The notes: generated by a model from the letters alone, not told the origin. 64,000 nt of DNA from Chloroflexota bacterium (GCA_021787985.1 JAJYLG010000001.1:50163-114162); one strand, 5' to 3'; numbered from the stretch's first letter, positions 1,675 through 33,141 are shown. Translations and numbers: made by a program.

Positions 1675-1892
1675 TTCAGAGCGCCTCCCGCAGCGATCAG
1701 TCGACCTTTGCTTGCGCACGCCCGCCCGGACGCGAACGGGGTCCGGCAGCCGCTCGGCCGACGCACGGGCAGGCCGATGACCGGCGGCTCCGTGTGCCCT
1801 GTCCGGCGCCCATCCACGAGCCTGGGCGAGTTCAACCGGTCGAGCCTCCTCATGGTGGCCTTGGCGATGGCATGTCCGTCCATGCTGGTCCC

Positions 1893-3056
1893 CTAGTTGC
1901 GGGGCAGACCCAGGCCCCGCGTCGCGATCACGTTGCGCTGGATCTCGGACGTGCCGCCGCCGATGGTCGCCGCGACCGCGCCCAGGTACATCCGCTCGAG
2001 CCGGCCCATGAGCGGCGCGTGCGGCGTACCGGGCGCGAGCTGGCCGTGCATCCCGCACACCTTCATGCCGGCACCGGCCACACGTTGCTGTAGCTCGCTG
2101 CTGAAGACCTTGAGCAGCGACGCCTCCTTCGACGGCATCAGTCCTCTGTCCTGCATGGATGCGACCGCGTAGGCCATCACCGTCCCGGTCTCGGTGGCCG
2201 TGCGCAGGTCGATCAGCATGTGGCGGACGGAGACCGGCGGGCGTGTCGGAAGCGCGCGGGCCAGCTCGATGATCTCCTCCAGCGTTCGGCGCACCCCCGC
2301 GAAGGAGGCGATGCTCGACCGCTCGAAGTCGAGCGTGGTGGCCGTCTGGTACCAGCCACGGTGAAGCTCGCCAACGAGATTCTCGCGTGGCACGCGCAGG
2401 TTATCGAAAAACACCTGGTTAAAGAAGTGGCCGTCGGCCATGTTCGTCAACGGCTGAACGGTGACGCCCGCGCTGTGCATGTCGACGATGAAGTTGCTGA
2501 TGCCGCGGTGCTTGGGTGCGTCGGGGTCCGTCCGCGCGGCCAGCCAGCAGAAGTCGGCGCGGTGGGCGTCGGAGGTCCAGATCTTCTGCCCGTTGATAAC
2601 GAAGTCGTCGCCGTCCTGGACGGCGCGCGTCTGGAGGGACGCCAGGTCGCTGCCGGCGCCTGGCTCCGAGAACCCCTGACAGAAGAACGCCCCGCCGGCG
2701 GTGATCTGCCTGAGAAAGACCCGCCGCTGCTCCTCGGTCCCGTAGCGAATCAAGATCGGGCCGACGTAGAAGACGCCGCGGCGATGGGCGGCGGCCGGAG
2801 CGCGGTGGTAGGCGATCTCCTCGTTGAAGATCGCCTGCTCGATGTGCGCAAGGCCCAGGCCGCCGTACTCCTTCGGCCACGGCAGCGCGATCCAGCCGCG
2901 CTCCGCCAGGCGCTTCGAGAACCACGGCGACCAGCCGCCGATGCCGAGCCCCTCTTCGCCGAGATCGTCTTCGGGAACGTGGGGCAGCGTTTCCCGGAGG
3001 AACGCTCGCACCTCATCGCGGAATGCCGCCTGCTGCGGTGTCAATCGGAAATCCAT
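1893..3056 (-). CDS. Acyl-CoA dehydrogenase
   Basis: The protein begins MDFRLTPQQAAFRDEVRAFL and ends ...GGTSEIQRNVIATRGLGLPRN, which is ACAD family. A strong RBS AAGAAGGTGGTGGC sits immediately before the ATG at 3054-3056. It is a paralog of the ACAD at 11686..12831. Confidence 0.85.
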   Translation of the reverse strand: MDFRLTPQQAAFRDEVRAFLRETLPHVPEDDLGEEGLGIGGWSPWFSKRLAERGWIALPWPKEYGGLGLAHIEQAIFNEEIAYHRAPAAAHRRGVFYVGPILIRYGTEEQRRVFLRQITAGGAFFCQGFSEPGAGSDLASLQTRAVQDGDDFVINGQKIWTSDAHRADFCWLAARTDPDAPKHRGISNFIVDMHSAGVTVQPLTNMADGHFFNQVFFDNLRVPRENLVGELHRGWYQTATTLDFERSSIASFAGVRRTLEEIIELARALPTRPPVSVRHMLIDLRTATETGTVMAYAVASMQDRGLMPSKEASLLKVFSSELQQRVAGAGMKVCGMHGQLAPGTPHAPLMGRLERMYLGAVAATIGGGTSEIQRNVIATRGLGLPRN

Positions 3057-3110
3057 GCCACCACCTTCTTGCGCACCTGTCACCCACTCCGTGCCTATTT
3101 CGGCTTCAGG

Positions 3111-4328
3111 TCATGTCCGCTCGCCGTTCACACTGCCGAACGCGCCCGCCGCGCGCAGGCGCGCGATCTCTTCGGGGGAGAACGCGGCCTCGCGCAGCAC
3201 CGCGTCCGTGTCGGCGCCAGCCGCGTGTGCCGTGTGGCGGACGGCGCCCGGGGTCTCGGAGAGCTTCACGGCGATGCCAACCTGGCGAACCGGGCCAACT
3301 TCGGGGTCGAGCAGATCGACGAACATGCCTCGCGCCCGGAGCTGTGGGTCGCTGGCCGCTTCGTCGAGCGTGTAGACGGGGCTCGCGGCCACGTCGTGGT
3401 CACGCAGCGCGTCGAACCACTCGTCGCGCGGCCGGGCACGAAACGCCTCGGCAAAGAACCGCCGGATCTCCTCGGCACGCTCTCCAGCCGCCCACTGGTC
3501 GTCGAGATACCGCTCACCACCGAGGGCACGGCACAGGTTCTCGTAGAACCACGGCTCGTTGCAGCCGACGGCGATGTAGCGGTCGTCGGCGCAGCGATAG
3601 GCGCCGTAGTAGGGAGCGGCGCCCGTCAGCCGGTGCGTGCCCCGCATGGGGATGCTGCCGCGCGCGAAGTACTCCGAGAAGAAGTACGTGAGGAGCATGG
3701 CGACGCCGTCGGTCATGGCGATGTCGACGTACTGGCCGGCTCCCGTCCGCTCACGGGCGACGACCGCCGCGAGGATACCGAAGGCCGCGAGCAGTCCACC
3801 GCCCGCGAAGTCGCCGAGCAGATTGCCGGGGGTGGCCGGTGGGCCGTCGCGCTCTCCGATGAGGCTCAGCGCGCCGGCCAGCGCGATGTAGTTGATGTCG
3901 TGGCCGACGACTCCCGCGTAGGGGCCGTCCTGGCCGTAGCCGGAGATGGAGCAGTACACCAGCCTGGGGTTGAGGTCCCGCAGGCGCTCGTAGTCCACGC
4001 CCAGCCGCCTGACCACGCCGGGGCGGAAGCCCTCGACGACGACATCGGCCGTTCGCGCCAGGCGTCGGAAGACCTCCACCCCGTCCGGCGACTTCAGGTC
4101 GAGCGTGATGCTCCGCTTGTTGCGGTCAAACGCGCTGTGGGCGCGGCGCCGCGCCTCCTCCTCGGGAGGGGGCCGTCGCGCCTGACGTTCGAGGCGGGCA
4201 CGTCGTCCGCCACCCAGCTCCTCGATCTTGATGACGTCGGCGCCGAGGTCGGCCAGCAGCATGGTGCAGAACGGCCCGGGCGCCAGCCGGGAGAGGTCGA
4301 GGATCCGGATGTGGTCCAAAGGCAACAC
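3111..4328 (-). CDS. Family III CoA-transferase, paralog 2
   Basis: Contains ...LPLDHIRILDLSRLAPGPFCTMLLADLGADVIKIE... and ...RERTGAGQYVD.... I place the start at the GTG at 4326-4328, 8 nt after an AAGGAGAG RBS. The ORF-track start at 4400 adds an Arg-rich tail. Confidence 0.75.
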   Translation of the reverse strand: MLPLDHIRILDLSRLAPGPFCTMLLADLGADVIKIEELGGGRRARLERQARRPPPEEEARRRAHSAFDRNKRSITLDLKSPDGVEVFRRLARTADVVVEGFRPGVVRRLGVDYERLRDLNPRLVYCSISGYGQDGPYAGVVGHDINYIALAGALSLIGERDGPPATPGNLLGDFAGGGLLAAFGILAAVVARERTGAGQYVDIAMTDGVAMLLTYFFSEYFARGSIPMRGTHRLTGAAPYYGAYRCADDRYIAVGCNEPWFYENLCRALGGERYLDDQWAAGERAEEIRRFFAEAFRARPRDEWFDALRDHDVAASPVYTLDEAASDPQLRARGMFVDLLDPEVGPVRQVGIAVKLSETPGAVRHTAHAAGADTDAVLREAAFSPEEIARLRAAGAFGSVNGERT

Positions 4329-4516
4329 GTCACTCGCTCTCCTTCTGCACCCGCGGCCCGCTCGCTCTGGCCGCGCGTTGTCGGGCGCGACCGGCTGCAC
4401 GAGCGTCCTCCTGCAGCCGGTCGCGCCGCCTGCGGTTCCGGCTCGGGCTCCCGCCCGCCGAAGTCCCCTCCCTCACCGTCCGTGGGGACCAGACAGGCAA
4501 TGTTCCGCCCGCCGCG

Positions 4517-5737
4517 TCAGTACTGGGGCACCGCGGCAGGCTGAGTCACCGGCACGAACTTGTTATCCTGCGCAGCCACGACCACTTCCTTGAGCGAGCC
4601 GATGTGCCGCGAAGACGTGTAGGTGACGCTGTAGACGAGGCTTCCGGTCCAGTCGCTGAGGGTGTTCAGCGCGGCCTCGAGGTCCTTCCAGGTGGGCTTC
4701 TGGCCGTTGGCCGTCGCCTTCTTGAACGCCTCGCCGAAGATCTCGCCGGCAGCGAAGCCTTGCTGGCTCAGGAGACCGGGCTGGGCATTCGGGAAGTACT
4801 TCGCCAGCGCCGCGCGGTAATCCGACGCCGCGGGCGTGCTCGCATCCGGACCGACCATGTAGCTGTCGAAGAAGGTCGTGCCGTTCGCGAGGCCGTTGCT
4901 CAGCTTGAACAGGCTCGGGTCGGCGTTGTAGAACCCTGCCGCCCACAGTGGATGGTATCCGCTCCCTGCGGCGTCCTTCTCCGCCGTCGAGAGCTGGGGA
5001 ATGCTCGCCCCCCACCAGACGATGCCGTCCACGCCCGCGTCTTTCATCCTGCTCACGTACGAGCTCATGTCGACCGCGGTCGGGTCCACCGCCAGCTCGG
5101 GGCCCACGGACAGGTTCTCGTGCTGCGCGTACGCTTCGAAGCCCGCCTTCGCCACGGTCCCGACGTCGTTGTTCTCGTACAGCAGTCCGAGCTTCGCCAC
5201 GCTCTTCTGCTTGGTGAGGAATTGCGCCAGGAACTCGGTGGCGTACCGGTAGACGGGGTTAGCCGGGAAGTAGTTGGCGATGCCGGGCTCCTTGACGAAC
5301 GGGTCGCTGGAGAAGCCCGGCGCGATGTCCGGGATGCCGGTCTGCTTGATGAACGGCATTACGGCGTTGTTCGGGATCGTTCCGACATCGCCCACCACGG
5401 CGAAGACATGGTCCTGGTTGACCAGCTTTTTCATCACGGTCAATGACCGCGAGGGATCGTAGGCGTTGTCGGCCGTGTCGTAATTGAACGTATAGCCGTT
5501 GATGCCACCGTGGTCATTGACCCACTTGACCCAGGCCTGCACGCCATACGTGAACGGCAGCAGGAAGTTGAACGGGCCAGTTACAACCTCACCGCCGCCG
5601 ATCGTGACCGTCTTTCCCGACACGCCGGGAGCGCTGGAGCTTGACTTGGAGCTGCTGCACGCGGCAAGCAGGGCCACTGCAGCGACCAATGCGAGCAGGA
5701 GCGTCGATTTGCTCTTGACCCGAGCCCACGAGTTCAT
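4517..5737 (-). CDS. ABC transporter substrate-binding lipoprotein (branched-chain amino acid / Liv-type binding protein family)
   Basis: Starts at the ATG at 5735-5737 after a GGGAGGAAACC RBS. It has a signal peptide with a lipobox (...LLLALVAAVALLAACSS...) and a periplasmic binding protein type I fold signature. The longer ORF-track N-terminus is low-complexity. Confidence 0.8.
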   Translation of the reverse strand: MNSWARVKSKSTLLLALVAAVALLAACSSSKSSSSAPGVSGKTVTIGGGEVVTGPFNFLLPFTYGVQAWVKWVNDHGGINGYTFNYDTADNAYDPSRSLTVMKKLVNQDHVFAVVGDVGTIPNNAVMPFIKQTGIPDIAPGFSSDPFVKEPGIANYFPANPVYRYATEFLAQFLTKQKSVAKLGLLYENNDVGTVAKAGFEAYAQHENLSVGPELAVDPTAVDMSSYVSRMKDAGVDGIVWWGASIPQLSTAEKDAAGSGYHPLWAAGFYNADPSLFKLSNGLANGTTFFDSYMVGPDASTPAASDYRAALAKYFPNAQPGLLSQQGFAAGEIFGEAFKKATANGQKPTWKDLEAALNTLSDWTGSLVYSVTYTSSRHIGSLKEVVVAAQDNKFVPVTQPAAVPQY

Positions 5738-6003
5738 GGTTTCCTCCCTTTTCCGTTCGTCCTTCGACCTCGCTCGATAGTTGCCAGGGTTCGCATTCGG
5801 CGGTTGGTGCGCCGGTCCAGCGCCCGTCCAGGCACGGCGCTCCCGCCCGAGCTGCCTCGGCGGAGGCGCGTGCGCGCGGCACCCCCGCCCGCCTCGCAGG
5901 GGGTTGTCCTGCGGCGAGCTGACGATGGTCGCTTGGTCCCGGCGGACCTCCTTTCCGGCGGCGGCCGCCACGGCAGTTCCTCTTCCCGGTTGCTCCAGGT
6001 CAT

Positions 6004-6714
6004 TCACAGGAGCTGATAGGCTCCTTTCACGGCGGGATCCGCGCGCAGGACAGATGTCGCGCCCTCCATCACGACCTGCCCGGACTGCAAGATATAGCCG
6101 TAGTCGGCGAGGGCCAGCGCGAGGGTGACGTTCTGCTCGACCAGGAGCAGGGCTACTCCCGTGCGGTTGATCTCTCGCAGGATCTCGAATATCTGCTGCA
6201 CGATGGCGGGCGCCAGACCGAGCGATGGCTCGTCGAGGAGCAGAACGCGTGCGTGCGCTACCAACGCCCGCCCTACCGCCAGCATCTGCTGCTCGCCTCC
6301 CGAGAGCGTGCCCGCGGGCTGGCGGAGCCGTGACCGGAGCGCGGGGAAGTACGTGAGGACCTGATCGAGATCGGCCCGCCTCGTCTTCTGGTGGTCACGG
6401 ACGGCCATGCTTCCGCAGAGCAAGTTCTCCTCTACCGTGAGGTCGGGGAAGACCTGTCGGCCCTCTGGGACCTGCACCACGCCGCCGCGGGCGATGCGAT
6501 GGACCGGCCAGCGATCGATCCGAGTCCCATCGAGCCGCACGGTGCCGGACATGATGCGCAGCTCACCGGAGATCGCCCGGACGAGCGAGGTCTTCCCTGC
6601 GCCGTTGGGACCCAGGACCGTGACGATCCCGGACTCGGGGATACGCACGCACACCTCATGGAGCACGGTCTTGGGGCCGTACCCGGCGACGAGCGATTCC
6701 ACCTCAAGGAGCAC
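6004..6714 (-). CDS. ABC transporter ATP-binding protein (LivF-like)
   Basis: Walker A GPNGAGKTS, a signature LSGGEQQML and Walker B LLLDEPS are all present. The start overlaps the upstream ATPase stop by 11 nt. Confidence 0.85.
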   Translation of the reverse strand: MLLEVESLVAGYGPKTVLHEVCVRIPESGIVTVLGPNGAGKTSLVRAISGELRIMSGTVRLDGTRIDRWPVHRIARGGVVQVPEGRQVFPDLTVEENLLCGSMAVRDHQKTRRADLDQVLTYFPALRSRLRQPAGTLSGGEQQMLAVGRALVAHARVLLLDEPSLGLAPAIVQQIFEILREINRTGVALLLVEQNVTLALALADYGYILQSGQVVMEGATSVLRADPAVKGAYQLL

Positions 6715-7486
6715 CGGCGCCCTCCCCCAGGTAGCTCGTTACCACCGGCGGCGCGCTCAGGACTTCGGCTGGCCGTCCTGCCGCGATCACCGTCCCGAAG
6801 TTCATGGCGTACATTCGGTTGCTCAGTCGCTCGATGAACCGCACGTCGTGGTCGATCACCAGGACGGCCAGCCGGTACGACGCCCGAATGTCGTCGATCT
6901 TCTGCCGTAGCATGTCCTTCTCGTGCGTGTTCAGCCCCGCCGCGGGCTCGTCGAGGAGCAGCAGTCGCGGCCGGCTGGCTATCGCTCGCGCCAGCTCCAC
7001 CAGCTTCTGGATGCCATACGGCAGGAGCTCGACTCGCTCGTCGCGCCACTCCCGCAGGCCGACCTCGTCCAGGACCTCGTCGGCGCGAGCGCGCATCGCC
7101 CGCTCGTCGCGCCGGGCTGATGGCGCGTTGACAAGGGCGGACATGACGCCGGTCCGGTGCTGCGAATGCAGCCCAACCATCACGTTCTCGACGACCGTCA
7201 TCCCTTCGAAGAGCTCGAGGTTCTGGAAGGTCCGCGCGATGCCCGCTCGAATGATGCTGTGCGGCGCACGGCCCAGCAGCGGTGCACCGGCGAACGAGGC
7301 GCGCCCGCCGTTGGGCCGGGCGAAGCCGGTGATCGCGTTGATAAGCGTCGTCTTGCCGGCGCCGTTCGGCCCGATGATGCCGACCGACTCACCCTCGTCG
7401 ACGGTCAGCGATACGCCGTCAACGGCGCGGACACCGCCGAACCGCACCTGGAGACCCTCGATCGCAAGCAGCGCGCTCACACGCAT
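6704..7486 (-). CDS. ABC transporter ATP-binding protein (LivG-like)
   Basis: Has GPNGAGKTT, a branched-chain-type insertion, and LLLLDEPAAGLN. Confidence 0.85.
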   Translation of the reverse strand: MRVSALLAIEGLQVRFGGVRAVDGVSLTVDEGESVGIIGPNGAGKTTLINAITGFARPNGGRASFAGAPLLGRAPHSIIRAGIARTFQNLELFEGMTVVENVMVGLHSQHRTGVMSALVNAPSARRDERAMRARADEVLDEVGLREWRDERVELLPYGIQKLVELARAIASRPRLLLLDEPAAGLNTHEKDMLRQKIDDIRASYRLAVLVIDHDVRFIERLSNRMYAMNFGTVIAAGRPAEVLSAPPVVTSYLGEGAGAP

Positions 7487-7495
7487 CCGGCCTTC

Positions 7496-9424
7496 CTAGC
7501 TGCTCTTCGCCGGGTCGCCGAGCGGCTCCGCAGTGGTGAGCTGTTGCCGCCTCCCGGTCCGGATGAAAAGGTTGGCCAACTGATCGGGAACACCGACAAT
7601 CCCGCGTGGTGCAAAGCGGATGACAACGAGCAATGCTCCGCCGTAGATCACGTACTGCCAGTTCCCGACCCCCGCGACGAGCTGCGGGATCATCACCAGG
7701 AAGAGCGCCCCGACGATCGCGCCGGGCAGCGACTCCATCCCTCCTACCACCACGGCCGCGAGGTAGAAGATCGAGTTCCAGAACGTAAAGGTCTGAGGCG
7801 AGATGAAGTTGACGGTGTGCGTGTACAGACTGCCCGCCACACCGGCGAGCATGGCGCTGACGACGAACGCCAGCAGCTTGTAGACCGTGATGTTCACGCC
7901 CATCGCCTTTGCGGCCGGCTCGCTCGAGCGGAGAGCGAGCCAAGCACGACCGATGCGCGAGCGGCGCAGATTGGCGACGGCCGCGATGCATACCGCCAGT
8001 ACCACCAGGGCAAGCCAGTACTTGGCCCGGCCGCCGGTGAGCATCAGGCCGAACAGGCTCGGCTCAGGCCCTGCCATCCCGTTGAATCCGCCGGTCAGGC
8101 GGTTGAGGTTCGCGATGGCGGTGGGCAGGCCCCACCCGAACCCCCACGTGGCTACCGCCAGGTATGGCCCGCTCAGCCGCAGGCAGGGAACCCCGAGCGC
8201 CAGCCCGAACAGGCCCGCGACGACCGCCGCGGCCACCAGTCCGCCGAGGAACGGGAAGCCAAGATCCGTCGTGACGATGGCGGAGCAGTACGCGCCGAGC
8301 CCCATGAACCCCGCCTGCGCCAGGGAGACCTGCCCCGTGAAGCCGAACAGCACGGTGAGTCCCAGGATGGCGATCGCGGCGATCCAAACCTGCGTCAGTT
8401 GGTCCGTTCTGATGGAACCGACGAGAAACGGCAGCACCACGCCAATGATGACGAGGAGTGACGTCGCAGATGTCTTCCGCCTCCCGCTCCCGAGGAACCG
8501 CTGCAGCGGCGAGCCGCCCTGCGGTCGCGCGAATAGCCCGTGGGTGGCGGAGATCAGCGACCTTCTTCCGAACAGCCCCTGCGGCCACAGCACCAGCGTC
8601 AGCAAGATAATGAGAACGAGTATCGGGCTCGTCCACTGCGTCGAGACATAGAGGTCGAGGACGTTCGTGACCACGCTCAGCAGCACGGTGCCGGCAACCG
8701 CCCCGAGAAAGCTGGTCAAGCCGCCGAGGACCACTCCCGCGAACGCTATCAGCAGCAACTGGTCCATGATGCCGATGTCGAGGTAGTAGATCGGCGTGAT
8801 GATCGCGGCTGCCAGGGCGCCGAGCGCCCCACTCAACACCCAGGACAGGCTGAACACGCTCTCGACGTTGATCCCCAACAGCCCGGCCACGCGCGCGCTC
8901 TGGCTCGTCGCTCGCATGGCGAGGCCGATGCGCGTGCGCTGCATCAACAGCGTCAAGAGCAGGATGACGACGGCCACGACTCCCAAGGCAAGAAGCGAGC
9001 TGTAGCCCAGCGAGATCGAACCGACCCGCACCCCACCCGTGCCCACCGGCGAGGGCACCGCGAACTCGTACGGTCCCCAGACGAACAGGGCCACACCACT
9101 CAAGATCATCGAGATGGCCAGAGTGGCGATGACCGACGACATGAGCGGTTGACCGCGGAGTGGACGCAAGATCAGTCGGTCCATGACCAGCCCGAGCGCG
9201 CCGCCGAGCAGCACCGCGAGCAGGACCGCGAGCGCATAGGGCAGGTGCACGTGTGTCAGCAGGACGTACAGGAGGAAGCCACAGAGCATCGAGGCATCGC
9301 CCTGGGCGAAGTTCAATACATTGGTAGAACGAAAGACAACGATCACTCCGAGCGCCAGCAGGCCAAGGGCGCCGCCCATAACGACTCCGCTGACTATGCC
9401 CTGAGCCAGGCTCCCGAAATGCAT
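7496..9424 (-). CDS. Fused LivH-LivM type ABC permease (single 642-aa polypeptide)
   Basis: Starts at ATG 9422-9424 (MHFGSLAQGIVSGVV...). The LivH-like half is followed without a stop by a LivM-like half (...LTQVWIAAIAILGLTVLFGFTGQVSLAQAGFMGLGAY...). The ORF-track N-terminal 100 aa are low-complexity. Confidence 0.75.
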   Translation of the reverse strand: MHFGSLAQGIVSGVVMGGALGLLALGVIVVFRSTNVLNFAQGDASMLCGFLLYVLLTHVHLPYALAVLLAVLLGGALGLVMDRLILRPLRGQPLMSSVIATLAISMILSGVALFVWGPYEFAVPSPVGTGGVRVGSISLGYSSLLALGVVAVVILLLTLLMQRTRIGLAMRATSQSARVAGLLGINVESVFSLSWVLSGALGALAAAIITPIYYLDIGIMDQLLLIAFAGVVLGGLTSFLGAVAGTVLLSVVTNVLDLYVSTQWTSPILVLIILLTLVLWPQGLFGRRSLISATHGLFARPQGGSPLQRFLGSGRRKTSATSLLVIIGVVLPFLVGSIRTDQLTQVWIAAIAILGLTVLFGFTGQVSLAQAGFMGLGAYCSAIVTTDLGFPFLGGLVAAAVVAGLFGLALGVPCLRLSGPYLAVATWGFGWGLPTAIANLNRLTGGFNGMAGPEPSLFGLMLTGGRAKYWLALVVLAVCIAAVANLRRSRIGRAWLALRSSEPAAKAMGVNITVYKLLAFVVSAMLAGVAGSLYTHTVNFISPQTFTFWNSIFYLAAVVVGGMESLPGAIVGALFLVMIPQLVAGVGNWQYVIYGGALLVVIRFAPRGIVGVPDQLANLFIRTGRRQQLTTAEPLGDPAKSS

Positions 9425-9470
9425 TGTCCCCCCACCCGTCCCTCGGATCCGCGTAAGGATGGCGTTTCCG

Positions 9471-10643
9471 CTAGGCGGGCACGTTCCCCGACAGAAGGTC
9501 TCGGGCGATGACCATGCGATGGACCTCGGAAGGCCCTTCACCGACCAGCCACACCCGCAGCGCGCGAAGCCACCCCTCCAGGGGCATCTCGCGCGTGAGC
9601 CCGACTCCGCCGTGCACCTGGATGGACCGGTCGACAACCCGATAGGAAGCCTCGGTAGCCAGGAGCTTGGCCATGGAAGCGTGGTAGCGGGCCTCCCGGC
9701 CCTCGACGTCGCGCCAGGCCGCATCCCAGGTCAGCCAGCGGCTCGCCCTCAGCTCGACCGCGGAGTCGGCGAGCATCCACTGCACCGCCTGGCGTGTCGC
9801 GAGCGGCGCGCCGAATGTCTCGCGCTGCTTCGCGTATTCGGTCGCCATCGCGAGTGCCTTGCTGGCGACGCCGATGGACTGCGCCGCGATGGAGACACGG
9901 CCGTGCACCAGCCATTTCTGTGCCAGCGCGAATCCCTGTCCCGGCGCGCCCAGCATCTGCTCCGCGGGTACGCGGCAGTCGTCGAAGGTGATCTCCGTGG
10001 TCCAGCGATCACGGATCACGTGGACGGGACGCACCTCCATCCCCGGCGTGCCGGAGTCGATGATGAACGCGCTGATCCCCTCACGTCCCTTGCCGACGTC
10101 GGTCCGCGCGTAGACGATTCCGTGCTGAGCGCGGTCCGCCCCGGTGGAGAAGAGCTTGCGTCCATTCAGGACCCAGTCGTCCCCATCGCGGACCGCCCGT
10201 GTCTGGATGGCCCGCGCCGGGTCAGAGCCGCCCGACGGCTCGGTAATCGCCACGAACCAGCGACGCGCCTCCGCAACGGAGGGGATGACGTATCGCCGGA
10301 CCTGCTCCTGAGCGCCGGCCAGGAGAACGTTCGGCGGGGTGCGGCCGAATGCCCCACCGGCCGCCTCGAAGAGCCCGGTGCGGTGTTGCACCGCCTCCTC
10401 GAGCACGACCGAGTGCTCGAATGTGTTCAGGCCGCCGCCGCCGTACTCCTGCGGCACCTCGAAGCACCACAGCCCGGCAGCCCTCGCCTTGCCCTGAAGC
10501 TCTCGCACCTGCTCCTCGCGCAGCGTCACCTCATCCCAGCGCAGACTTCGTTCAGCAGCGACGACTTCGCGCTGCACGAACGCCCGTACCGTGTCGCGCA
10601 GGAGGGTCAGCTCGTCGGGCAGCTCGAAACCCTGAAACGGCAT
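9471..10643 (-). CDS. Acyl-CoA dehydrogenase
   Basis: Begins MPFQGFELPDELTLLRDTVRAFVQREVV... and contains ...GGVGLTREMPLEGWLRALRVWLVGEGPSEVHRMVIARDLL, which is ACAD family. The ATG is preceded by an AAGGGAG RBS. Confidence 0.85.
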   Translation of the reverse strand: MPFQGFELPDELTLLRDTVRAFVQREVVAAERSLRWDEVTLREEQVRELQGKARAAGLWCFEVPQEYGGGGLNTFEHSVVLEEAVQHRTGLFEAAGGAFGRTPPNVLLAGAQEQVRRYVIPSVAEARRWFVAITEPSGGSDPARAIQTRAVRDGDDWVLNGRKLFSTGADRAQHGIVYARTDVGKGREGISAFIIDSGTPGMEVRPVHVIRDRWTTEITFDDCRVPAEQMLGAPGQGFALAQKWLVHGRVSIAAQSIGVASKALAMATEYAKQRETFGAPLATRQAVQWMLADSAVELRASRWLTWDAAWRDVEGREARYHASMAKLLATEASYRVVDRSIQVHGGVGLTREMPLEGWLRALRVWLVGEGPSEVHRMVIARDLLSGNVPA

Positions 10644-10788: not shown

Positions 10789-11520
10789 TCATCCGTCCGC
10801 TCGCGCGTCTGGCGTCCGCACGCGGCGGCGCCGGGATATCGCACCGTCTGGGGCGCGGGTGACGCCGCCAGGCGGTTCCGCCGTCGCCTGCTCCAGACGC
10901 CGGATGGTCCGCTCCCGGTGGCCTCGCTGCAGCGCGAGCACCTCTTCCACCGCGCCGCGGCGGCACGCGTCCACCATCGCGCGGTGATCGGCTTCGGTCG
11001 CTTCGAGGTGTGCTCCCGTCGCGAAGAGCGCTCGATACGGGGCCGAAGCGCCCCACAAGATCCGGAGCACCTGGTATGCCCAGGCGATACCGGCCGCGTC
11101 CAGCATGACGAAGTGGAACTCATGGTTGACCCGGTTGAACCGGCCCGGATCGTGCGCCTGCAGTGCGTCATCCATCTCGGCGACGAGCTGGTCCAAACGG
11201 TCAATGTGCTCAGCACTAAGCTTGGGGATCGCCGCCCTGAGGACGAGCTCCTCGACAACCGCGCGGACCTGGTAGATCTGGCGGAGGTCGTCGATGGTGA
11301 ACTTCGCCACCCGTACCCCGCGTCGAGGTAGCAGGATAACCAGCCCATCGGACTGGAGCTGGCCAAACGCCTCGCGCACCGAGCTCTGGCTGACATTGAG
11401 GCGCGTCGCCACCTCGACCTGCCGGATGTGCTCGCCGGCGGTCATTCGGCCTTCGAGGATCTCGTTGCGAAGCACCTGGGCGACCCAGGTGCTGACGGAA
11501 CTGGCGCCCATCGCGACCAT
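10789..11520 (-). CDS. GntR-family transcriptional regulator (FadR/FCD subfamily)
   Basis: An N-terminal winged HTH (...IRQVEVATRLNVSQSSVREAFGQLQSDGLVILLPRRGVRV) is followed by an FCD-like helical domain. It has no SD. A -10-like GATAAT sits 6 nt upstream of the ATG, which suggests a leaderless mRNA. Confidence 0.8.
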   Translation of the reverse strand: MVAMGASSVSTWVAQVLRNEILEGRMTAGEHIRQVEVATRLNVSQSSVREAFGQLQSDGLVILLPRRGVRVAKFTIDDLRQIYQVRAVVEELVLRAAIPKLSAEHIDRLDQLVAEMDDALQAHDPGRFNRVNHEFHFVMLDAAGIAWAYQVLRILWGASAPYRALFATGAHLEATEADHRAMVDACRRGAVEEVLALQRGHRERTIRRLEQATAEPPGGVTRAPDGAISRRRRVRTPDARADG

Positions 11521-11526: not shown

Positions 11527-11555
11527 ATTATCGACTATCGGTCATACTGGGTCAA
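11527..11555 (-). promoter_or_regulatory. Sigma-70-like promoter (TTGACC-N17-GATAAT) carrying the conserved 14-mer CGATAGTCGATAAT, directly upstream of the GntR start
   Basis: In gene orientation the -35 TTGACC is at 11550-11555 and the -10 GATAAT at 11527-11532. The predicted TSS falls at the A of the GntR ATG. The same 14-mer and ~50 nt of flanking similarity recur at 15661-15700. Confidence 0.55.
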
Positions 11556-11685: not shown

Positions 11686-12831
11686 ATGGATTTCCGCTTC
11701 ACCCCCGAGCAAGAGCGGTTCCGGGCCGACGTCCGCGACTTCATCGCGCACCACTGGCCCGCGGGTCGGACTCCGGGGGACGCCGAGGCGCTGGACGCGC
11801 GACGGGTGCGCACGTTCCGGCGGGCGCTGGCAGAGCGCGGCTGGCTGACGCTCGCCTGGCCCACTGAGCACGGCGGGCTGGGGCTGGGTCCGCTCTGGCA
11901 GGCCATCTATATCGAGGAGATGGCCTCGGCGGGCGCGCCGTACCGCGATCAGGGTGTCGATCGCATTGGGCCCACCCTCATGCTCCATGGCACCGAGGAC
12001 CAGCGACGCCGTCATCTGCCGCCCATCGCCCGCGCCGAGTCCTGGTGGTGCCAGGGGTTCTCCGAGCCGGGCGCCGGCAGTGACCTGGCCTCCCTGCAGA
12101 CCCGCTCGGTCCTCGACGGCGACGAGTTCATCGTCAGTGGCCAGAAGATCTGGACCAGCTACGCTCATCAGGCCGACTGGATGGTCCTGCTGGTTCGCAC
12201 CGACCCGGACGCGCCCAAGCACCGCGGCATCTCCTTCCTGCTCGTCGACGTGAAGACCCCGGGCATCACGGTGCGCCCGCTTGTCAGCCTGCCCGGCCAT
12301 CACTCGTTCAACGAGGTCTTCTTCGAGGATGTGCGCGTGCCACGGGAGAACCTCGTCGGCGAGCTGAACCGCGGCTGGTACGTCGCCACTACCACGCTGG
12401 ACTTCGAGCGCAGCGGCATCGACCGCGTGGTCGTGGCGCGCCGACTGCTCGAGACGCTCCTGGCCCACGCCCGCGAGCGCGGCGTGCCGCGGACGATGGC
12501 GATGGAGCTGAGCGAGCTCCGCACCGGCTTCGAGGTAGCCCGCATGATCGCGTATCGCGTGGCCTGGTTGCAGCAGCAGGGCCTCGTGCCGAACCGCGAG
12601 GCGTCGCAGAGCAAGCTCCTCGGAACCGAGGTCCACCAGCGTCTCGCCAACCTGGCGCTGCGCATGCTGGGGCCGGTGGGGCTGCTACGTGCCGGCGATC
12701 CCCTCGCGCCGTTGGCGGGCCTGGCGGCCGAGGAGTACCTGGGCTCCGTGGCGGTCACCGTCCAGGCGGGGACCAGCGAGATCCAGCGCAACATCATCGC
12801 GACGCGAGGTCTCGGCCTACCACGTTCCTAA
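11686..12831 (+). CDS. Acyl-CoA dehydrogenase (divergent from the GntR gene)
   Basis: Begins MDFRFTPEQERFRADVRDFIAHHW and ends ...GTSEIQRNIIATRGLGLPRS. A GAAGGGAG RBS lies ~10 nt upstream of the ATG at 11686. It is a paralog of 1893..3056. Confidence 0.85.
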   Translation: MDFRFTPEQERFRADVRDFIAHHWPAGRTPGDAEALDARRVRTFRRALAERGWLTLAWPTEHGGLGLGPLWQAIYIEEMASAGAPYRDQGVDRIGPTLMLHGTEDQRRRHLPPIARAESWWCQGFSEPGAGSDLASLQTRSVLDGDEFIVSGQKIWTSYAHQADWMVLLVRTDPDAPKHRGISFLLVDVKTPGITVRPLVSLPGHHSFNEVFFEDVRVPRENLVGELNRGWYVATTTLDFERSGIDRVVVARRLLETLLAHARERGVPRTMAMELSELRTGFEVARMIAYRVAWLQQQGLVPNREASQSKLLGTEVHQRLANLALRMLGPVGLLRAGDPLAPLAGLAAEEYLGSVAVTVQAGTSEIQRNIIATRGLGLPRS

Positions 12832-12860: not shown

Positions 12861-14096
12861 CTATTCAAAGATCCCCGCGGCCTCGTAGGCTGCCATCTCG
12901 TCGTCCGAAAGGCCGAGGATCTCGCGGCAGACCCAGTCCCGCGCTTCCCCCAGCAACGGCGCCGCTCGGCGCGGCTGCGCGACCAGGTCGGAGAAACGGA
13001 ACGGGCTGCCGTGGCATCGATACCTGCCCATCTCCGGGTGGTCCAGCACCGCAAACGTGCCGCGGAAGCGGAACTGTGGGTCCGCGAAGAGATCTTCCCC
13101 TTTCGCCACTGCGGCCGCGGGCACGCCCACCGCCTGCAGCCGACGCACGAGGTCGTTCGCCTCGAACCCGGCGGTCCAGGCGGCGAGCGTCGCCTCGAGC
13201 GCGTCCTCGTGCCGTTTCCGCTCCAGGAAGGTCGCGAAGCCCTCGTTCTGGCACAGATCTTCCCGCCCCATCTCGGTGCAGAGCGCCGACCACTGCGCGT
13301 CCGTCCGCACCGCGATGGCGACCCAGCGGTCTTCACCCCGGCAGGGGAAGACCCCGTGGGGAGCGGCGTACGGGTCTCGGTTGCCTCGGCGCACCGCGGC
13401 GGCGCCGCGAGTGGCGGGAAGCTGCTCACCCAGCAGGCCCGGAAGCGCGAACTGGCAGGCGACCTCGTACTGCGAGAGATCAACGTACTGTCCCCGACCC
13501 GTCCGCCGCCGGTACTCCAGCGCGACGAGCACAGCCACGGAGACGTAGTGCAGCGCGATGAAATCCGCGTACGCGGAGTACGGCCCGGTGGGTGGCCGGT
13601 CCGGCCAGCCGGTGACCTCGTACCAGCCGGTGAGGGCGGATGCCTGCTGGCCGTAGCCGCGGTGCGTGGCGTGAGGGCCGGTTTGCCCCTGCAGGCATTC
13701 GCTGACCATGATCAGGTCCGGACGAACCCTCCGCAGATCTTCGTACGCAAGCCCCCAGCGTGCCATCACTCCGGGCACGAACGTCTCGACGACCGCGTCC
13801 GCCCAGGGAAGCAGGCGCTTGAAGAACTCGCGCGCGGCTGGCTTCTGCATGTTGAGCGCCAGGGAACGCTTGTCCGAGTTGTAGACGGCGAAGTAGCCGC
13901 TGCGGTTCAGTCCTCGTACGTCGCCCGCATACGGTGAACCGAGTCGCGTGGTATCCGGGTGCACGCTCGATTCGACGCGCAGCACCGTCGCGCCCCACAT
14001 GGCCAGCAGCTTCGTGGCGGCCGGCCCGGCCACGGTCGTGCCGAAGTCCAGGATGTGGACGCCTTCCAGGGGCAGTGTGGGTCGTTCGCCGGCCAT
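12861..14096 (-). CDS. Family III CoA-transferase, paralog 3
   Basis: Contains ...VHILDFGTTVAGPAATKLLAMWGATVLRVES... and ...RRTGRGQYVDLSQYE..., the CaiB/BaiF fold signature. Confidence 0.8.
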   Translation of the reverse strand: MAGERPTLPLEGVHILDFGTTVAGPAATKLLAMWGATVLRVESSVHPDTTRLGSPYAGDVRGLNRSGYFAVYNSDKRSLALNMQKPAAREFFKRLLPWADAVVETFVPGVMARWGLAYEDLRRVRPDLIMVSECLQGQTGPHATHRGYGQQASALTGWYEVTGWPDRPPTGPYSAYADFIALHYVSVAVLVALEYRRRTGRGQYVDLSQYEVACQFALPGLLGEQLPATRGAAAVRRGNRDPYAAPHGVFPCRGEDRWVAIAVRTDAQWSALCTEMGREDLCQNEGFATFLERKRHEDALEATLAAWTAGFEANDLVRRLQAVGVPAAAVAKGEDLFADPQFRFRGTFAVLDHPEMGRYRCHGSPFRFSDLVAQPRRAAPLLGEARDWVCREILGLSDDEMAAYEAAGIFE

Positions 14097-14097
14097 C

Positions 14098-15357
14098 TCA
14101 GACCACCCCCAGGGCGAACAGCAGCTCGAGCTCTTGCGAGCTCAAGCCGAGCTCATCCACGAGCACGGCACGGTTGTGCTGCCCGAGTCGGGGTGCCGGA
14201 CCTCGGACGACCCAGGGTGCGCCCGTGGTATGAACCGGCACCCCGGGATACCGCAGCACGATCGCTCGTGCCGTGTCCGCGACCTCTCGCCAGGAAGCGC
14301 GCGCCGCAAGCTGGGGGTCGGCGAGCACGTCCGCCAGCGTGTTGACCGGGCTGAACATGTGTCCGTCGCGGACGGCTGCTTCCAGGAGCTCCGCCTTCGT
14401 CTTGGTGCGCAGGAAAGCGGTGAAGGGCTCGAGGAACCGGTCGACCTCATCGGGGGGTAGGCCCGCGGGATCGAAGGTGGCCCAGTCGGTCTGCTTGAGC
14501 CATTCCGGTGCCGCGCCTTCGGAATCCATCCACTCCATGAGCTTGCGGGCGGTCCGTGCGCCGCCGTAGAAGGTCATGAACATCCAGACCACCCAGCCAT
14601 CCTTGCATTGATAGAGGGTGCGCGAGCGGCGTCCGGGGCCGAGGTCGCGCCACATTCCTTGTCGCTGGAGATTGACGCCGCTGAGATCGGCGAACGCGTA
14701 GGTGTGCGTCAGCATGGACAGCGGCACCTCCTGCGCCGCCACGTCGACGTGTTCGCCGTGGCCGGTTGCGAGGCGGCGAAAGTGGGCCGCGAGGGCGCCG
14801 ACCACGCCGGCCATCGCCAGGTGCAGGCTTGCCTGCGGCGGGAGCCCCACCCGCAGCGGCGCCCGGTCGGGATCCCCGACCATGTGCATGTACCCGCCGA
14901 GCGCCCAGGTGAGCAGGTCGTCCCCCGCGTACGAGCGATACGGCCCTTCCTGCCCGTACGGCGTGAGCGACACCAGGACGACGCGTTCGTTCTGCGCCCT
15001 CAAGTCTTCGTAGGCGAGTCCGCGCGCCGCCAGATAGCCGGGCGGAAACCCTTCGACGACGAAATCCGCCCCCGAGACGAGCTTCCGGAACAGCGCCTGG
15101 CCGTCGCGAGTGTCGAGGTTTAGCGTGACGCTCTGCTTGCCGGCGCCGTATCCCAACCAGAACAGCCCGCGCTCGAGGCCCGGCTCGCCGTCGGCGAACG
15201 GGCCGAGGCGGCGAGCCGGGCTGCCCCCCGGCGGCTCAACCGCGATGACCCGCGCCCCCAGGTCGGCGAAAGTGCGGCCGAAGAGCGCCGTCTCCGTCGT
15301 CGCCAGCTCCAGCACGACATAGGGCGCGAGCAGGTCCTCGTGTGTCTCGTTGGCCAT
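14098..15357 (-). CDS. Family III CoA-transferase, paralog 4
   Basis: Starts at the ATG at 15355-15357 (MANETHEDLLAPYVVLELATTETALFGRTFADLGARVIAVEPP...) with a GGAGGA RBS 13 nt upstream. The in-frame upstream extension to 15660/15708 is low-complexity. Confidence 0.75.
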   Translation of the reverse strand: MANETHEDLLAPYVVLELATTETALFGRTFADLGARVIAVEPPGGSPARRLGPFADGEPGLERGLFWLGYGAGKQSVTLNLDTRDGQALFRKLVSGADFVVEGFPPGYLAARGLAYEDLRAQNERVVLVSLTPYGQEGPYRSYAGDDLLTWALGGYMHMVGDPDRAPLRVGLPPQASLHLAMAGVVGALAAHFRRLATGHGEHVDVAAQEVPLSMLTHTYAFADLSGVNLQRQGMWRDLGPGRRSRTLYQCKDGWVVWMFMTFYGGARTARKLMEWMDSEGAAPEWLKQTDWATFDPAGLPPDEVDRFLEPFTAFLRTKTKAELLEAAVRDGHMFSPVNTLADVLADPQLAARASWREVADTARAIVLRYPGVPVHTTGAPWVVRGPAPRLGQHNRAVLVDELGLSSQELELLFALGVV

Positions 15358-15660
15358 TTCGCTGCTCGTTTCCTCCAAGCCTGCCTCCTCGGCGAACGAT
15401 GAGGTCGGATTGTCCACGGGGGCTCCCTGCTCGCCTCGGTGGCCCGTAACTTCCCTCGCCGCCGGCAGCAGGGGCCGACGCGCGGCGGCGCAGGAGGGAG
15501 CGTGGACGGGCCTTGCCGATGCTTCGCCGGCGCGGCGAGCCGCGGTCGCAGGCGAGGCCGGCAGTTCCTCCGCAAGCAGCCCATGCTGCCGAACGAGGGT
15601 GGGCCAGCGGCGGAAGGAGCGCGGCTGGCGCGGGCAACAGAGAGCGGCCCACCGGGCCAT

Positions 15661-15689
15661 ATTATCGACTATCGACCAAAATGGATCAA
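15661..15689 (-). promoter_or_regulatory. Second copy of the promoter/operator element (TTGATC-N17-GATAAT with CGATAGTCGATAAT)
   Basis: This is the same architecture as the 11527-11555 element. It lies ~300 nt upstream of the CoA-transferase 3/4 gene pair. Confidence 0.5.
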
Positions 15690-19432: not shown

Positions 19433-21751
19433 TTACGCCCGCTGCCCCGGTTCTGTACGTTCCCTCGAAGACGAGCGCCGGACACGGGCGGCACGCGGCG
19501 CCCTGGTCTTGGTGGGAGACCGTGTGGCCGCGGCGGACAGGTCCGGCGCCGCCGATGGCTCGGGATCCGCAGCGCCGGTGCCCCCGAGCCCGTGGAGGTC
19601 GGGTGGTCGCCGTGCTTCGCCGATCGCCTTCCTGAAATGGCGGGCCGCAAGCGCCAAGCGCTCGGGCTCAGGCTCCTGACCCCGTTCGATCTGCTCCCGG
19701 ACGGCGAGCATGGTCGCCCGGCGACAGACGAAGCCGATGCGCCCGCCGGTCCAGCCGTCCGTGAGGTCGGCGAGCGTCTCCACTTCCACGTCATCCGCGA
19801 GAGGCTTGCCGTTCAGGTGTAGCTGGAAGATCTCCAGCCTCGCGGCCTTGGCCGGGAGCGGAAGCTCGATTACCAGCTCGAACCGACCGGGAGTCAACAG
19901 CGCGGCGTCGATGGCCTCCGGCCGATTCGCTGCCGCCATCACGACGATGCCGTCCGTCTCGGCCAGCTCATCCATCTCGGTGAGAAGCTGGCTAACGATG
20001 CGATCAGTGACTTGCGTGTCGGACGCGGCGTCCCGTGCGGGCGCCAACGCGGCGAGATCATCAAAGAAGAGGATGCACGGGGCGGTAGTCCGGGCGCGGC
20101 GGAACGCTTCCCGCACTCCCTTCTCGGTCTCGCCGAGCCACTTCGAGAGCAGCTCCGCGCCTCGGACAGGAATCAACGTGCTCTTGCTTTCGCCCGCGAC
20201 GGCTCTGGCCAGGAGGGTCTTCCCAGCTCCTGAAGGTCCGTACAGCAGCACGCCTTTCGGCGGTCGCGCTTGCGCCCGCTGGAAGAGCGCTGGATACTTC
20301 GTCGGCCAGACGATGGCCTCGTCGAGCGCCTGCTTCGCCTCTTCCAGCCCCGCCACGTCGCTCCAGCCGGCCCGAGGTGTTTCGCTGGACAGGCCGCGCA
20401 TCGCGGCCGGCTTCAGACCTGCCAGCGCTTCGAAGAAGTCGGCGCCGCTGACGATCAGGCTCTCCAGTGAGCTGGGCGACCAGTCGCCGGCGTTGCCGCC
20501 GGACGGCGCCATCTCCTTCCTCAGGCGCACCATTGCCGCCTCGCGGCACAAGTTGGCCAGGTCGGCGCCGACGAAGCCATGGGTCAGGTCGGCGATGCTG
20601 GCCAGATCGACGTCCGCGGCGAGCGGCATGGGGTGAGTGTGGATGGCCAAAATCTCGAGCCGCCCGGAGGTACCCGGCACCGGCACGTGGATCTCACGGT
20701 CGAACCTGCCAGGCCGGCGCAGGGCGGGATCGAGCATGTCGGGAGCGTTTGTGGCAGCGATGACGATCACCTGCTCCCGTGACTCGAGGCCGTCCATGAG
20801 CGCCATCAACTGCGCCACGACTCGCTTCTCCACGTCTCCGTAGACGTCCTCGCGCTTGAGCGCGACGGCGTCGATCTCGTCGAAGAAGATGACCGAGGGC
20901 GCATTCTCGCGGGCCTCGCGGAACACCTCGCGCAGGCGCGACTCCGACTCGCCATAGAATTTGTGGAAGATCTCCGGACCGCTGACGTGGATGAAGTGGG
21001 CCGAGGTCTCGCCCGCGACTGCCCGGGCGACCAACGTTTTCCCCGTGCCAGGCGGACCGTACAGGAGCACCCCTTTCGGCGGCTCGATCCCCAGCCGTTC
21101 GAAGACCTCTGGATGGAGGAGAGGCAGCTCTACCACCTCGCGCACCCGCTGCAGTTGCAGCGTCAGGCCACCGACATCGGCATAGGTCGTCCGGGGTCCG
21201 GACTCCGACGCACCCACCTGCAGGGCTGTCTCCTCGCAGATCTCAGCCGGGCCCGCCGGCTCCGTCGATTTCACGATGAACTCCGCGGGCCGTAGCTGGT
21301 CATCGTCGATACAAAGGTAGTCGCCCGGCTGCACGACCATGCTCTGAAACCGTGAGCTCAGCTCCTTCGTTCTGTGTCCATCACGATCCGGGAAACCGCC
21401 CAGTGGCACGAGGAGCACTCGCTCTGCGGCCGGGCAGGCGGCGACCTGCACGATCGACGCCGGCTCTCCGAGGTTCACCCGAGCGTTGCGCCGCACCAGC
21501 GCGTCGGCCTGCACGATGCCCTTCCCGCGGTCCGCGGTCCGCGTAGGGTACACCCGCGCGTGGGCAGCTCGCTTGCCGTGAACACGGACGACCTCACCAA
21601 CATGGGCGCCGATGCGCTCCATGTCCGCCGGATCGATGCGGACGATGCCCCTCGCCGCGTCCTCGGTCGGGGCTTCGGCGACCCGGCGCTCGATGCCTAC
21701 TCCGCCGTCCATCCGGTCCCCACCGCGGGCAACGCGGCCATCCTCCGTCAC
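19433..21751 (-). CDS. Cdc48/VCP-like double AAA+ ATPase (Cpa/VAT-like unfoldase)
   Basis: It has an N-terminal double-psi-barrel-like domain and two AAA modules, each with Walker A GPPGTGKT / GPSGAGKT and a second-region-of-homology. The GTG start at 21751 overlaps the upstream stop (GTGA). An alternative ATG start lies at 21712. Confidence 0.85.
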   Translation of the reverse strand: MTEDGRVARGGDRMDGGVGIERRVAEAPTEDAARGIVRIDPADMERIGAHVGEVVRVHGKRAAHARVYPTRTADRGKGIVQADALVRRNARVNLGEPASIVQVAACPAAERVLLVPLGGFPDRDGHRTKELSSRFQSMVVQPGDYLCIDDDQLRPAEFIVKSTEPAGPAEICEETALQVGASESGPRTTYADVGGLTLQLQRVREVVELPLLHPEVFERLGIEPPKGVLLYGPPGTGKTLVARAVAGETSAHFIHVSGPEIFHKFYGESESRLREVFREARENAPSVIFFDEIDAVALKREDVYGDVEKRVVAQLMALMDGLESREQVIVIAATNAPDMLDPALRRPGRFDREIHVPVPGTSGRLEILAIHTHPMPLAADVDLASIADLTHGFVGADLANLCREAAMVRLRKEMAPSGGNAGDWSPSSLESLIVSGADFFEALAGLKPAAMRGLSSETPRAGWSDVAGLEEAKQALDEAIVWPTKYPALFQRAQARPPKGVLLYGPSGAGKTLLARAVAGESKSTLIPVRGAELLSKWLGETEKGVREAFRRARTTAPCILFFDDLAALAPARDAASDTQVTDRIVSQLLTEMDELAETDGIVVMAAANRPEAIDAALLTPGRFELVIELPLPAKAARLEIFQLHLNGKPLADDVEVETLADLTDGWTGGRIGFVCRRATMLAVREQIERGQEPEPERLALAARHFRKAIGEARRPPDLHGLGGTGAADPEPSAAPDLSAAATRSPTKTRAPRAARVRRSSSRERTEPGQRA

Positions 21752-22695: not shown

Positions 22696-22711
22696 GTGCG
22701 CGTGTGCCCGT

Positions 22712-23590: not shown

Positions 23591-23599
23591 ATTCCGCTC

Positions 23600-25256: not shown

Positions 25257-25366
25257 TGGCGTGCTCCCTTCGCCCTGCTGCTCTTCCTTCGCCACAGTCT
25301 ATGGGAACCCCCGTGCAGGAGGGCGAGACGCGCGCGAAGCTCGCCCTCCTGCATCAAGGTCGGCGG

Positions 25367-26848: not shown

Positions 26849-26939
26849 CCTTTCCTCCCTGCACGAACTCCGAAGCGATGGTCATCGCTAATGACTTCAC
26901 GCGCTTCGCTACGGTGCCTGTTTGTCTGTTCGCACTCCT

Positions 26940-30965: not shown

Positions 30966-31115
30966 GTCTTACCGTCGCGTGCTCGCTGTCGGCGGCGCCG
31001 GACAGTCCTCAACTCCACCATCGACCCAACCGACTCTCCACGGTCCGGCTGATCTCCTGTCTCCAACGCGTATTCGCCGCGGCAGCGGCGGGCCGGGCGG
31101 CCGGCTCCGCGGCCA

Positions 31116-32737: not shown

Positions 32738-32751
32738 ATTATCGATTATCG
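32738..32751 (-). promoter_or_regulatory. Third copy of the AT-rich motif (perfect tandem GATAATCGATAAT in gene orientation), 20 nt upstream of the UGSC-B start
   Basis: ATTATCGATTATCG on the plus strand. It is -10-like, but there is no obvious -35. Confidence 0.45.
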
Positions 32752-32840
32752 GCCCTTCCCGCTCGTACCCGCCGAGAATAGCCACCCGCCCGCGCAGCGT
32801 CAAGCTCCCCACGTCGGACGTCGTTCGCAGCCGCGGCAGG

Positions 32841-33065: not shown

Positions 33066-33141
<76 letters not shown>

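Follow-up and report, generated by a model that had tools for sequence, protein, structure and literature searches.

The window, by which we mean the whole 64-kb stretch of DNA analysed, has a GC content of 0.66–0.74, and its position 1 corresponds to position 50,300 of the k141_1339019 record. Searches for further copies of the motif described below covered 82 kb, made up of the window and its flanks on the same contig, 9.5 kb on the left side and 8.7 kb on the right (ENA ERZ27233565 k141_1339019). The best homologues of one of the window's CoA-transferases are 50–54% identical to it, and the named ones are annotated as Chloroflexota. An earlier interpretation made from this DNA alone (the sequence-only reading) had listed CoA-transferase, ACAD, transporter and selenoprotein genes together with a GntR/FadR-type regulator. 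These gene contents were borne out as family III CoA-transferases, ACADs, Liv-type ABC transporters and UGSC proteins with an in-frame TGA, and the regulator was found to combine a winged helix-turn-helix (wHTH) with an FCD domain and to carry one of the motif sites in its own promoter (Table 1). All NCBIfam matches to the regulator and its putative targets fell far below the curated cut-offs.

Table 1. Motif sites, promoter-like sequences and genes discussed in the text, with positions counted from the first letter of the window.
Feature	Position	Strand	Remarks
Cluster co-directional with and following gntR	475..10643	-	ACAD, fused LivHM permease, two ABC ATPases, substrate-binding protein, CoA-transferase, ACAD, CoA-transferase
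GntR-family regulator, FadR/FCD subfamily (gntR)	10789..11520	-	243 aa; recognition helix VSQSSVREAF, Gln at FadR Arg-45 position
Site 1	11527..11540	-	CGATAGTCGATAAT, heptads GATAGTC + GATAATC; overlaps -10 hexamer and 3' spacer of gntR promoter
gntR promoter, sigma-70-type	11527..11555	-	TTGACC-N17-GATAAT; 10/12 hexamer positions matched
Acyl-CoA dehydrogenase, divergent from gntR	11686..12831	+	common 165-bp intergenic region holds site 1
Two family III CoA-transferase genes downstream of site 2	15417 or 15357..14098; 14096..12861	-	within 12861..15417
Site 2	15661..15674	-	CGATAGTCGATAAT; position within promoter as in site 1
Site 2 promoter	15661..15689	-	TTGATC-N17-GATAAT; 9/12 hexamer positions matched
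Rest of co-directional cluster behind site 3	21748..32156	-	UGSC-partner protein, LivG/F/H/M-like ABC transporter, substrate-binding protein, second UGSC selenoprotein, partner paralogue, DUF6282, NAD-binding protein
UGSC partner genes	31116-32156; 23600-24694	-	each directly behind a UGSC gene; ~350 aa
Second UGSC selenoprotein gene	24690-25295	-	in-frame TGA ~24969-24971, U-G-S-C context
UGSC-family selenoprotein gene	32176..32718	-	in-frame TGA 32440-32442, context N-U-G-S-C
Site 3	32738..32751	-	CGATAATCGATAAT, perfect GATAATC x2
Promoter-like sequence	32775..32803	-	TTGACG-N17-TATTCT; 24 nt upstream of site 3
BTAD-AAA-TPR (SARP/LAL-like) protein	36072-39629	-	1185 aa; distant from all motif sites
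Crp/Fnr-family protein	43482-44177	+	distant from all motif sites

The three sites are exact matches to ATTATCGAYTATCG on the plus strand, which reads CGATARTCGATAAT on the minus strand. There are exactly three copies of CGATARTCGATAAT in the 82 kb, all of them intergenic and each oriented toward a minus-strand operon. None lies inside coding sequence across the 82 kb, and neither the 9.5-kb left extension nor the 8.7-kb right extension holds a further site. Several similar CoA-transferase/ACAD/ABC units within the 82 kb are also without a site. When up to two mismatches were allowed, chance expectation was 0.11 and none of 100 shuffles reached the observed count. By our own calculation from base composition, exact copies of the 14-mer are expected about 5e-5 times in the window. 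The hexamer GATAAT occurs seven times in the 64-kb window on both strands, and four of these copies are inside the three sites. These results uphold two points of the sequence-only reading, namely that three exact sites all face minus-strand genes and that an AT-rich repeat of this kind is unlikely by chance in GC-rich DNA. A two-mismatch match, ATTATCCACGATCG, at 50221–50234 contains the DnaA-box-like TTATCCAC; it lies within a mutL-like coding sequence and so is probably due to chance.

We also looked for the motif in other sequence collections. A Logan contig from a second strain is identical over the site and therefore adds no comparative information. With GNNCGATARTCGATAAT as query against genome contigs, the matches listed (at least 120) were single hits, mostly in coding or low-GC DNA and from unrelated taxa, with the source genome not among them. 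A scan of viral sequences gave 64 matches, all single. A literature search with the exact motif strings returned nothing relevant.

The motif is made up of two GATARTC heptads, repeated directly at a period of 7, which are identical to each other at 7/7 positions in site 3 and at 6/7 in sites 1 and 2. GAT is the reverse complement of ATC, so the 14-mer can also be read as a 14-bp dyad with TCGA at its centre; 6/7 of its pairs are symmetric in site 3, as against 5/7 in sites 1 and 2. The core is AT-CG-AT. The canonical GT...AC core (TKGT/ACMA) is absent, and GT is found only in the left half of sites 1 and 2. The half-site centres are 7 bp apart, as in operators of the FadR subfamily.

Sites 1 and 2 lie within promoters of the same geometry, TTGACC or TTGATC followed by N17 and GATAAT, as the sequence-only reading had proposed. 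It had placed the motif in promoters at all three loci, and this held for these two sites; the likely promoter of the third lies upstream of the motif. Thus, -35 and -10 hexamers at the 16–18 bp spacing of sigma-70 promoters occur at sites 1 and 2, and at site 3 only as a separate hexamer pair upstream. The earlier placement of site 1 at 6 nt before the GntR start codon is also correct. The -10 of the gntR promoter and site 1 both end 6 nt before the ATG at 11520, and no Shine-Dalgarno sequence precedes this ATG. Because the -10 ends so close to the ATG, the gntR transcript is probably leaderless or nearly so, and transcription starting from the first base of the ATG would fit the geometry. 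A homologue of GntR aligns from a second ATG, 9 nt further on. The co-directional cluster that follows may be partly co-transcribed; its gaps of 145–266 nt, none of which contains the motif, could hold further promoters.

Between the promoter at site 2 and the CoA-transferase is a leader of unusual length, 237–297 nt depending on the start codon used (15418–15660). This leader had no match in Rfam and its fold z-score of -1.18 is not unusual, and for these reasons RNA-level explanations were rejected. A hairpin, GGCCC-GGT-GGGCC, lies directly 3' of the site 2 -10. The similarity of about 50 nt that had been noted around sites 1 and 2 is real: over the 46 bases on the upstream side of the 14-mer the two agree at 27 (p ~5e-5 when compared with random window pairs). 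About 36 bases upstream of the site 2 promoter are approximately 75% identical to the site 1 promoter. We searched for a gntR pseudogene behind site 2 and found no remnant. Given this likeness, sites 1 and 2 could be copies of a single promoter module or else separate promoters subject to equal constraints. Since the ~50 nt they share could stem from a single duplication, there are possibly only two independent sites, and we cautiously count sites 1 and 2 as one and a half independent observations. The best orthologue of the CoA-transferase is 54% identical, which is too far for footprinting.

Site 3 is a perfect GATAATCGATAAT ahead of the UGSC operon, in agreement with the sequence-only reading. 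It sits 19 nt before the UGSC ATG at 32718 and directly 5' of a GGGAGAA ribosome-binding site. There is no -35 at 17-bp spacing from site 3, and the promoter-like match upstream would place the site at about +18 to +31 of the transcript. The 14-mer is all that site 3 has in common with sites 1 and 2. The UGSC partner proteins had no match in Pfam or NCBIfam; the two are 42% identical, so that one transporter cluster contains the UGSC-partner pair in duplicate. A tRNA-Lys(CTT) gene (33066–33141, minus strand) is located just upstream of the site 3 promoter region.

In the window GntR, the wHTH domain (PF00392) spans residues 13–71 with E=2e-13, above the gathering score, and the FCD domain (PF07729) spans residues 81–201 with E=3e-20. 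Its top PDB matches are FCD-type GntRs, and His 136, 179 and 201 do not vary when it is aligned with other FCD proteins. The protein is an orphan whose best homologue among 5.8 billion proteins is only 35% identical, so footprinting through orthologues of the window GntR is impossible; the locus of that homologue has no such box. Identity to every regulator compared was 25–33%. At such low values, transfer of specificity rests on a few helix and wing residues. The recognition helix starts with Ser-Gln in the window GntR and in all box-associated regulators, and with Ser-Arg in the four closest solved FCD homologues. In FadR, Arg-45 makes a specific Arg-G contact (PMC4494728 Table 1). The box of the Gln-type window GntR has A/T at the positions where the canonical GT/AC has G/C. 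This residue-base pattern is coherent across a small sample of predicted operators.

As a comparison within the same DNA, we searched the whole window for promoter-like sequences by common criteria. This gave ten matches, three of them at the loci described here, and the seven others have neither the motif nor a second -10-like heptad in the spacer. The sole regulator adjacent to any site is the GntR-FCD protein, which has site 1 in its own promoter; among the annotated larger ORFs, no other regulator gene lies beside the three sites. No flanking repeats or transposase genes were found at the sites. GGGGAGC precedes the -35 at all three loci (11566, 15700 and 32804, minus strand). We rejected it as a common upstream element and ascribe it to chance, since it has 15 copies in the 82 kb and about 0.45 shared 7-mers are expected between 60-nt GC-rich flanks.

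Metagenomes were scanned with the -35 plus the motif as query. This returned 13 matches as compared with about 15 by a rough chance estimate. On one contig of 67% GC (L196), TTGACC-N17-GATAAT containing CGATAATCGATAAT lies 123 nt downstream of an FCD-GntR gene, and relatives of this regulator are numerous, some of them bearing the names Rubrobacteraceae or Thermoleophilia. Orthologous promoters heading a PEP-utilizer-GntR-cyclase operon in four diverged actinobacterial-type metagenome lineages retain the box, while their flanks have drifted apart. These promoters read TTGACC-N10-GATAATC-GATAATC (L205), TTGACT-N10-GATAATC-GATAATC (L210), TTGACG-N10-GATAATC-TATAATC (L222) and TTGACA-N11-GATCATC-GATCATC (L224). 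Between L205 and L210 the 14 bases of the box form an invariant island, and mean column identity over the aligned intergenic part as a whole is 63%. The long loci have a single site each. A difference in the recognition helix was considered as the reason for GATCATC in L224 versus GATAATC, and was rejected because the helices are identical. As a control, a GntR gene was nearby in 1 of 196 other motif-containing loci (~0.5%). At that locus, from Paenibacillus (L142), the motif is inside a 1271-aa coding sequence, and its nearness to a GntR gene was put down to chance.

Related boxes were found on three plasmids. Perfect ATCGAT-centred dyads (7/7) occur upstream of the plasmid's own Gln-type FCD-GntR on the Thermomicrobium roseum megaplasmid (GAGAATCGATTCTC), Rhodococcus plasmid pCP2 (AATGATCGATCATT) and Paenarthrobacter plasmid pAO1 (CATTATCGATAATG). 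The 260-nt upstream regions of Gln-type plasmid regulators from Streptomyces and Corynebacterium contain no ATCGAT-centred box, and none was found for the two Ser-Thr regulators examined. On pAO1, which is a nicotine-catabolism plasmid, CATTATCGATAATG is a perfect BioR-type box; a sugar ABC transporter operon and the Gln-type FCD-GntR gene diverge from the region that contains it (L236, NZ_CP089294.1 ~58.5 kb). The concerted C/C change in L224 favours a direct-repeat reading of the motif, and the perfect dyads on the three plasmids favour a dyad reading.

The GntR of Thermus thermophilus pAA2-2c (L233) is 35% identical to the window GntR and has Ser-Arg in the recognition helix. Its gene and a fumarate hydratase-ACAD-CaiB-MaoC operon are divergently transcribed, an arrangement that closely resembles the gene context in the window. 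The Thermus promoter is TTGACA-N17-TATACT, and its -10 is overlapped by a canonical GTATAC core. Paralogous actinobacterial FCD-GntR genes head cyclase-BKACE-glyoxalase-Mo-hydroxylase operons (L217 ~7880–7925, L221 ~9900–9940 and L219 ~480–520). Their gntR promoters read TTGnTT-ATA-TAGAATC-RATTATA-TAGAAT, which amounts to three degenerate heptads with the last as -10. On a further contig (L202 1327–1355; JGI Ga0222716_10053950, 64% GC), a reverse GATAATCGATAAT lies directly against the ATG of an ORF resembling citrate synthase. What looks like a -35 there is inside the citrate-synthase-like coding sequence, and the 2.8-kb contig has no GntR gene.

We compared the window sites with known operators. 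BioR is a FadR-subfamily GntR repressor of biotin genes in Alphaproteobacteria, and its box, TTATMKATAA, falls outside the canonical set (PMC4494728). BioR binding is documented by EMSA and reporter data (PMC4554459). Site 3 matches this box at 9/10 positions, sites 1 and 2 at 8/10 and the pAO1 box at 10/10. We located the bioR2 gene of P. denitrificans, which the published cloning primers match, and the box before it, CTTATCGACAATCC, is identical to window sites 1 and 2 at 11 of 14 positions. Like the window GntR, BioR combines a wHTH with an all-helical FCD-type domain. The operators share an AT-rich dyad centred on a C/A-G/T step without the canonical GT/AC, and BioR has a box before its own gene (autoregulation) and at a handful of operons, as the window gntR has site 1. 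The wing of BioR2, PRRGVRVA-F, is identical to that of the window GntR and both proteins lack Arg at the FadR Arg-45 position. However, BioR2 has His at this key position whereas the window GntR has Gln. BioR2 is 32% identical to the window protein, no closer than Thermus or Deinococcus FCD regulators, so that it does not qualify as an orthologue. The host of the window belongs to a different phylum, and annotation of the 82 kb yielded no biotin genes. By contrast with the BioR box, the window box continues as a second direct heptad and doubles as the -10 hexamer. Because orthology fails and biotin targets are absent, the window system is not a BioR, although from this comparison it appears to work like one.

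NanR of E. coli, also a FadR-subfamily GntR, acts on (GGTATA)n direct repeats at three operons, with transcription blocked in the promoter region (PMC8012715, PMC4494728). The window motif likewise has direct repeats at a fixed spacing and would define a small regulon of three operons, but the repeat sequence and the spacing are different. NanR needs a 32-residue N-terminal extension for the cooperative assembly of three dimers (PMC8012715), whereas the HTH of the window GntR starts at about residue 13 and the protein is without such an extension. Canonical FadR-subfamily operators, for example those of FadR, LldR, PdhR, GntR and UxuR, are TKGT-N2-3-ACMA palindromes (PMC4494728). The window sites resemble these in being dyads with A/T-rich arms and half-site centres 7 bp apart, in the left half of sites 1 and 2 (GT-CG-AT), and in overlapping the promoter of a divergent or own operon, as such operators often do. 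They differ in that the hallmark G/C pairs are A/T in the window and the guanine-contacting Arg is Gln. The Fur box is a 19-bp box of GATAAT hexamers in 6-bp register, two direct and one inverted. The window motif also has GATAAT units head to tail, but the period is 7 rather than 6, and there are just two units with no inverted third. In addition, no iron-related genes and no Fur-family gene lie near the sites, and homologous boxes co-occur with GntR genes.

Together, these data suggest that the 14-mer is quite probably the operator of the adjacent, autoregulated FadR-subfamily (FCD) GntR repressor, with binding predicted from sequence comparisons. This is proposed because the sites are rare, intergenic and co-oriented, because the sole adjacent regulator has site 1 and because boxes recur elsewhere. 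Most likely, the fatty-acyl-CoA-type catabolic genes and the selenoprotein/transporter operon form one small, fairly ordinary putative regulon. The sequence-only reading had predicted one regulon under the adjacent GntR, and this prediction gains support from the ATCGAT-centred boxes beside FCD-GntR genes in unrelated lineages and from the resemblance to the BioR box.

From these features we infer binding, repression, an effector, transcription starts and operon extents, as follows. A GntR dimer, or two dimers in 7-bp register, would bind the ATCGAT-centred GATARTC-GATAAT. At the gntR and CoA-transferase promoters the box would cover the -10 hexamer and the last 8 spacer bases, so that bound repressor would exclude RNA polymerase. 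GntR would thus repress its own gene, whose mRNA is probably leaderless. Where the box stands between the separate promoter and the ribosome-binding site, at the UGSC/ABC operon, it would act as a roadblock to elongation or initiation. The repressor would be released on binding of a small-molecule effector to its FCD domain; this effector is probably a carboxylate or acyl-CoA belonging to the pathway that the target genes encode. The CoA-transferase/ACAD/ABC genes would then be induced along with the UGSC selenoprotein operon.

The link between motif and GntR is one of adjacency and analogy, and the 14-mer could instead be the operator of another regulator encoded elsewhere, such as a global or ribbon-helix-helix protein reading 7-bp iterons, with the adjacency of gntR a coincidence. 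A 7-bp direct register is the geometry of heptad-iteron systems, and the exact 7-bp register seen here, with 7/7 identity in site 3 and L224, fits it. Both heptads of L224 share the A-to-C change, which suits a direct-repeat reader better than a dyad reader, and the DNA searched amounts to 82 kb. Nevertheless, we consider such a regulator unlikely. In every independent lineage with the box the promoter transcribes or abuts an FCD-GntR gene, as compared with a background of ~0.5% for a GntR gene near random motif matches. Beside the three sites no other regulator is annotated among the larger ORFs, and at 8–9 of 10 positions the box resembles a validated box of the FadR subfamily, that of BioR.

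We regard it as quite improbable that the 14-mer is intrinsic to the promoters, that is, a strong -10 with a duplicated -10-like heptad that needs no dedicated repressor and was spread by duplication of a promoter cassette. In sites 1 and 2, L205, L210 and L222 the 3' heptad indeed makes a good -10 (GATAAT or TATAAT), spaced 17 bp from a good -35, and the ~50 nt common to sites 1 and 2 are as expected of a copied cassette. Site 3, however, lacks a correctly spaced -35 and resembles sites 1 and 2 in the 14-mer alone, and the other promoter-like sites of the window are without an upstream heptad. In T. roseum, Rhodococcus and pAO1 the related boxes are perfect dyads that are not placed as -10 elements. 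Also, the heptad in the spacer half is conserved across diverged orthologous promoters, and promoter function alone needs none there. Finally, the motif could be a chance coincidence or a functionless relic of a repeat or mobile element, given that there are only three copies and two are possibly related by duplication. This is hardly credible in view of the ~5e-5 exact matches expected from base composition, with which the shuffle test agrees. The sites are not accompanied by flanking repeats, transposase genes or, at site 2, a remnant of a gntR pseudogene; all of them are promoter-proximal and the box is conserved in other lineages.

If the assignment of the 14-mer to the adjacent GntR is right, it assigns an operator and a regulon of three operons to an orphan regulator from a poorly sampled, uncultured Chloroflexota-like lineage. 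Its main value would be to link UGSC selenoproteins to CoA-transferase/acyl-CoA dehydrogenase catabolism and Liv-type uptake. It would also yield a residue-base rule, in which a non-Arg residue (Gln or other) at HTH position 38 goes with A/T for the G/C of GT/AC. Such a rule could improve operator prediction in the FadR subfamily, which is very large, and help in the design of biosensors. As far as sequence comparison goes, what would be new is a local FadR-subfamily regulon with a BioR-like, non-canonical operator, of a kind already known. It would leave general principles of bacterial gene regulation unchanged, and the general interest is modest.

A broader reading is possible, though we hold it to be rather doubtful. 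It posits a cross-phylum class of FCD-GntRs (Chloroflexota, Thermomicrobia and Actinomycetota) with Gln in place of Arg that reads ATCGAT-centred boxes of self-complementary GATWATC heptads, competes with sigma factor for the -10 and uses alternative 7-bp registers. In the window, such a regulator would put two UGSC selenoproteins under the same signal as an acyl-CoA/dicarboxylate catabolic pathway. Because the heptads can be read as direct or inverted and mimic a -10, the repressor would compete with sigma factor and could shift its 7-bp register. If true, this would be a first regulatory clue to the role of UGSC proteins.

Elsewhere in the window, an ORF at 45906–47111 (minus strand) overlaps a tmRNA and is for that reason probably spurious. 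The tmRNA (45790–46143, plus strand) has the tag GEPQLALAA, and a tRNA-Val(GAC) gene is at 39900–39976 (plus strand).
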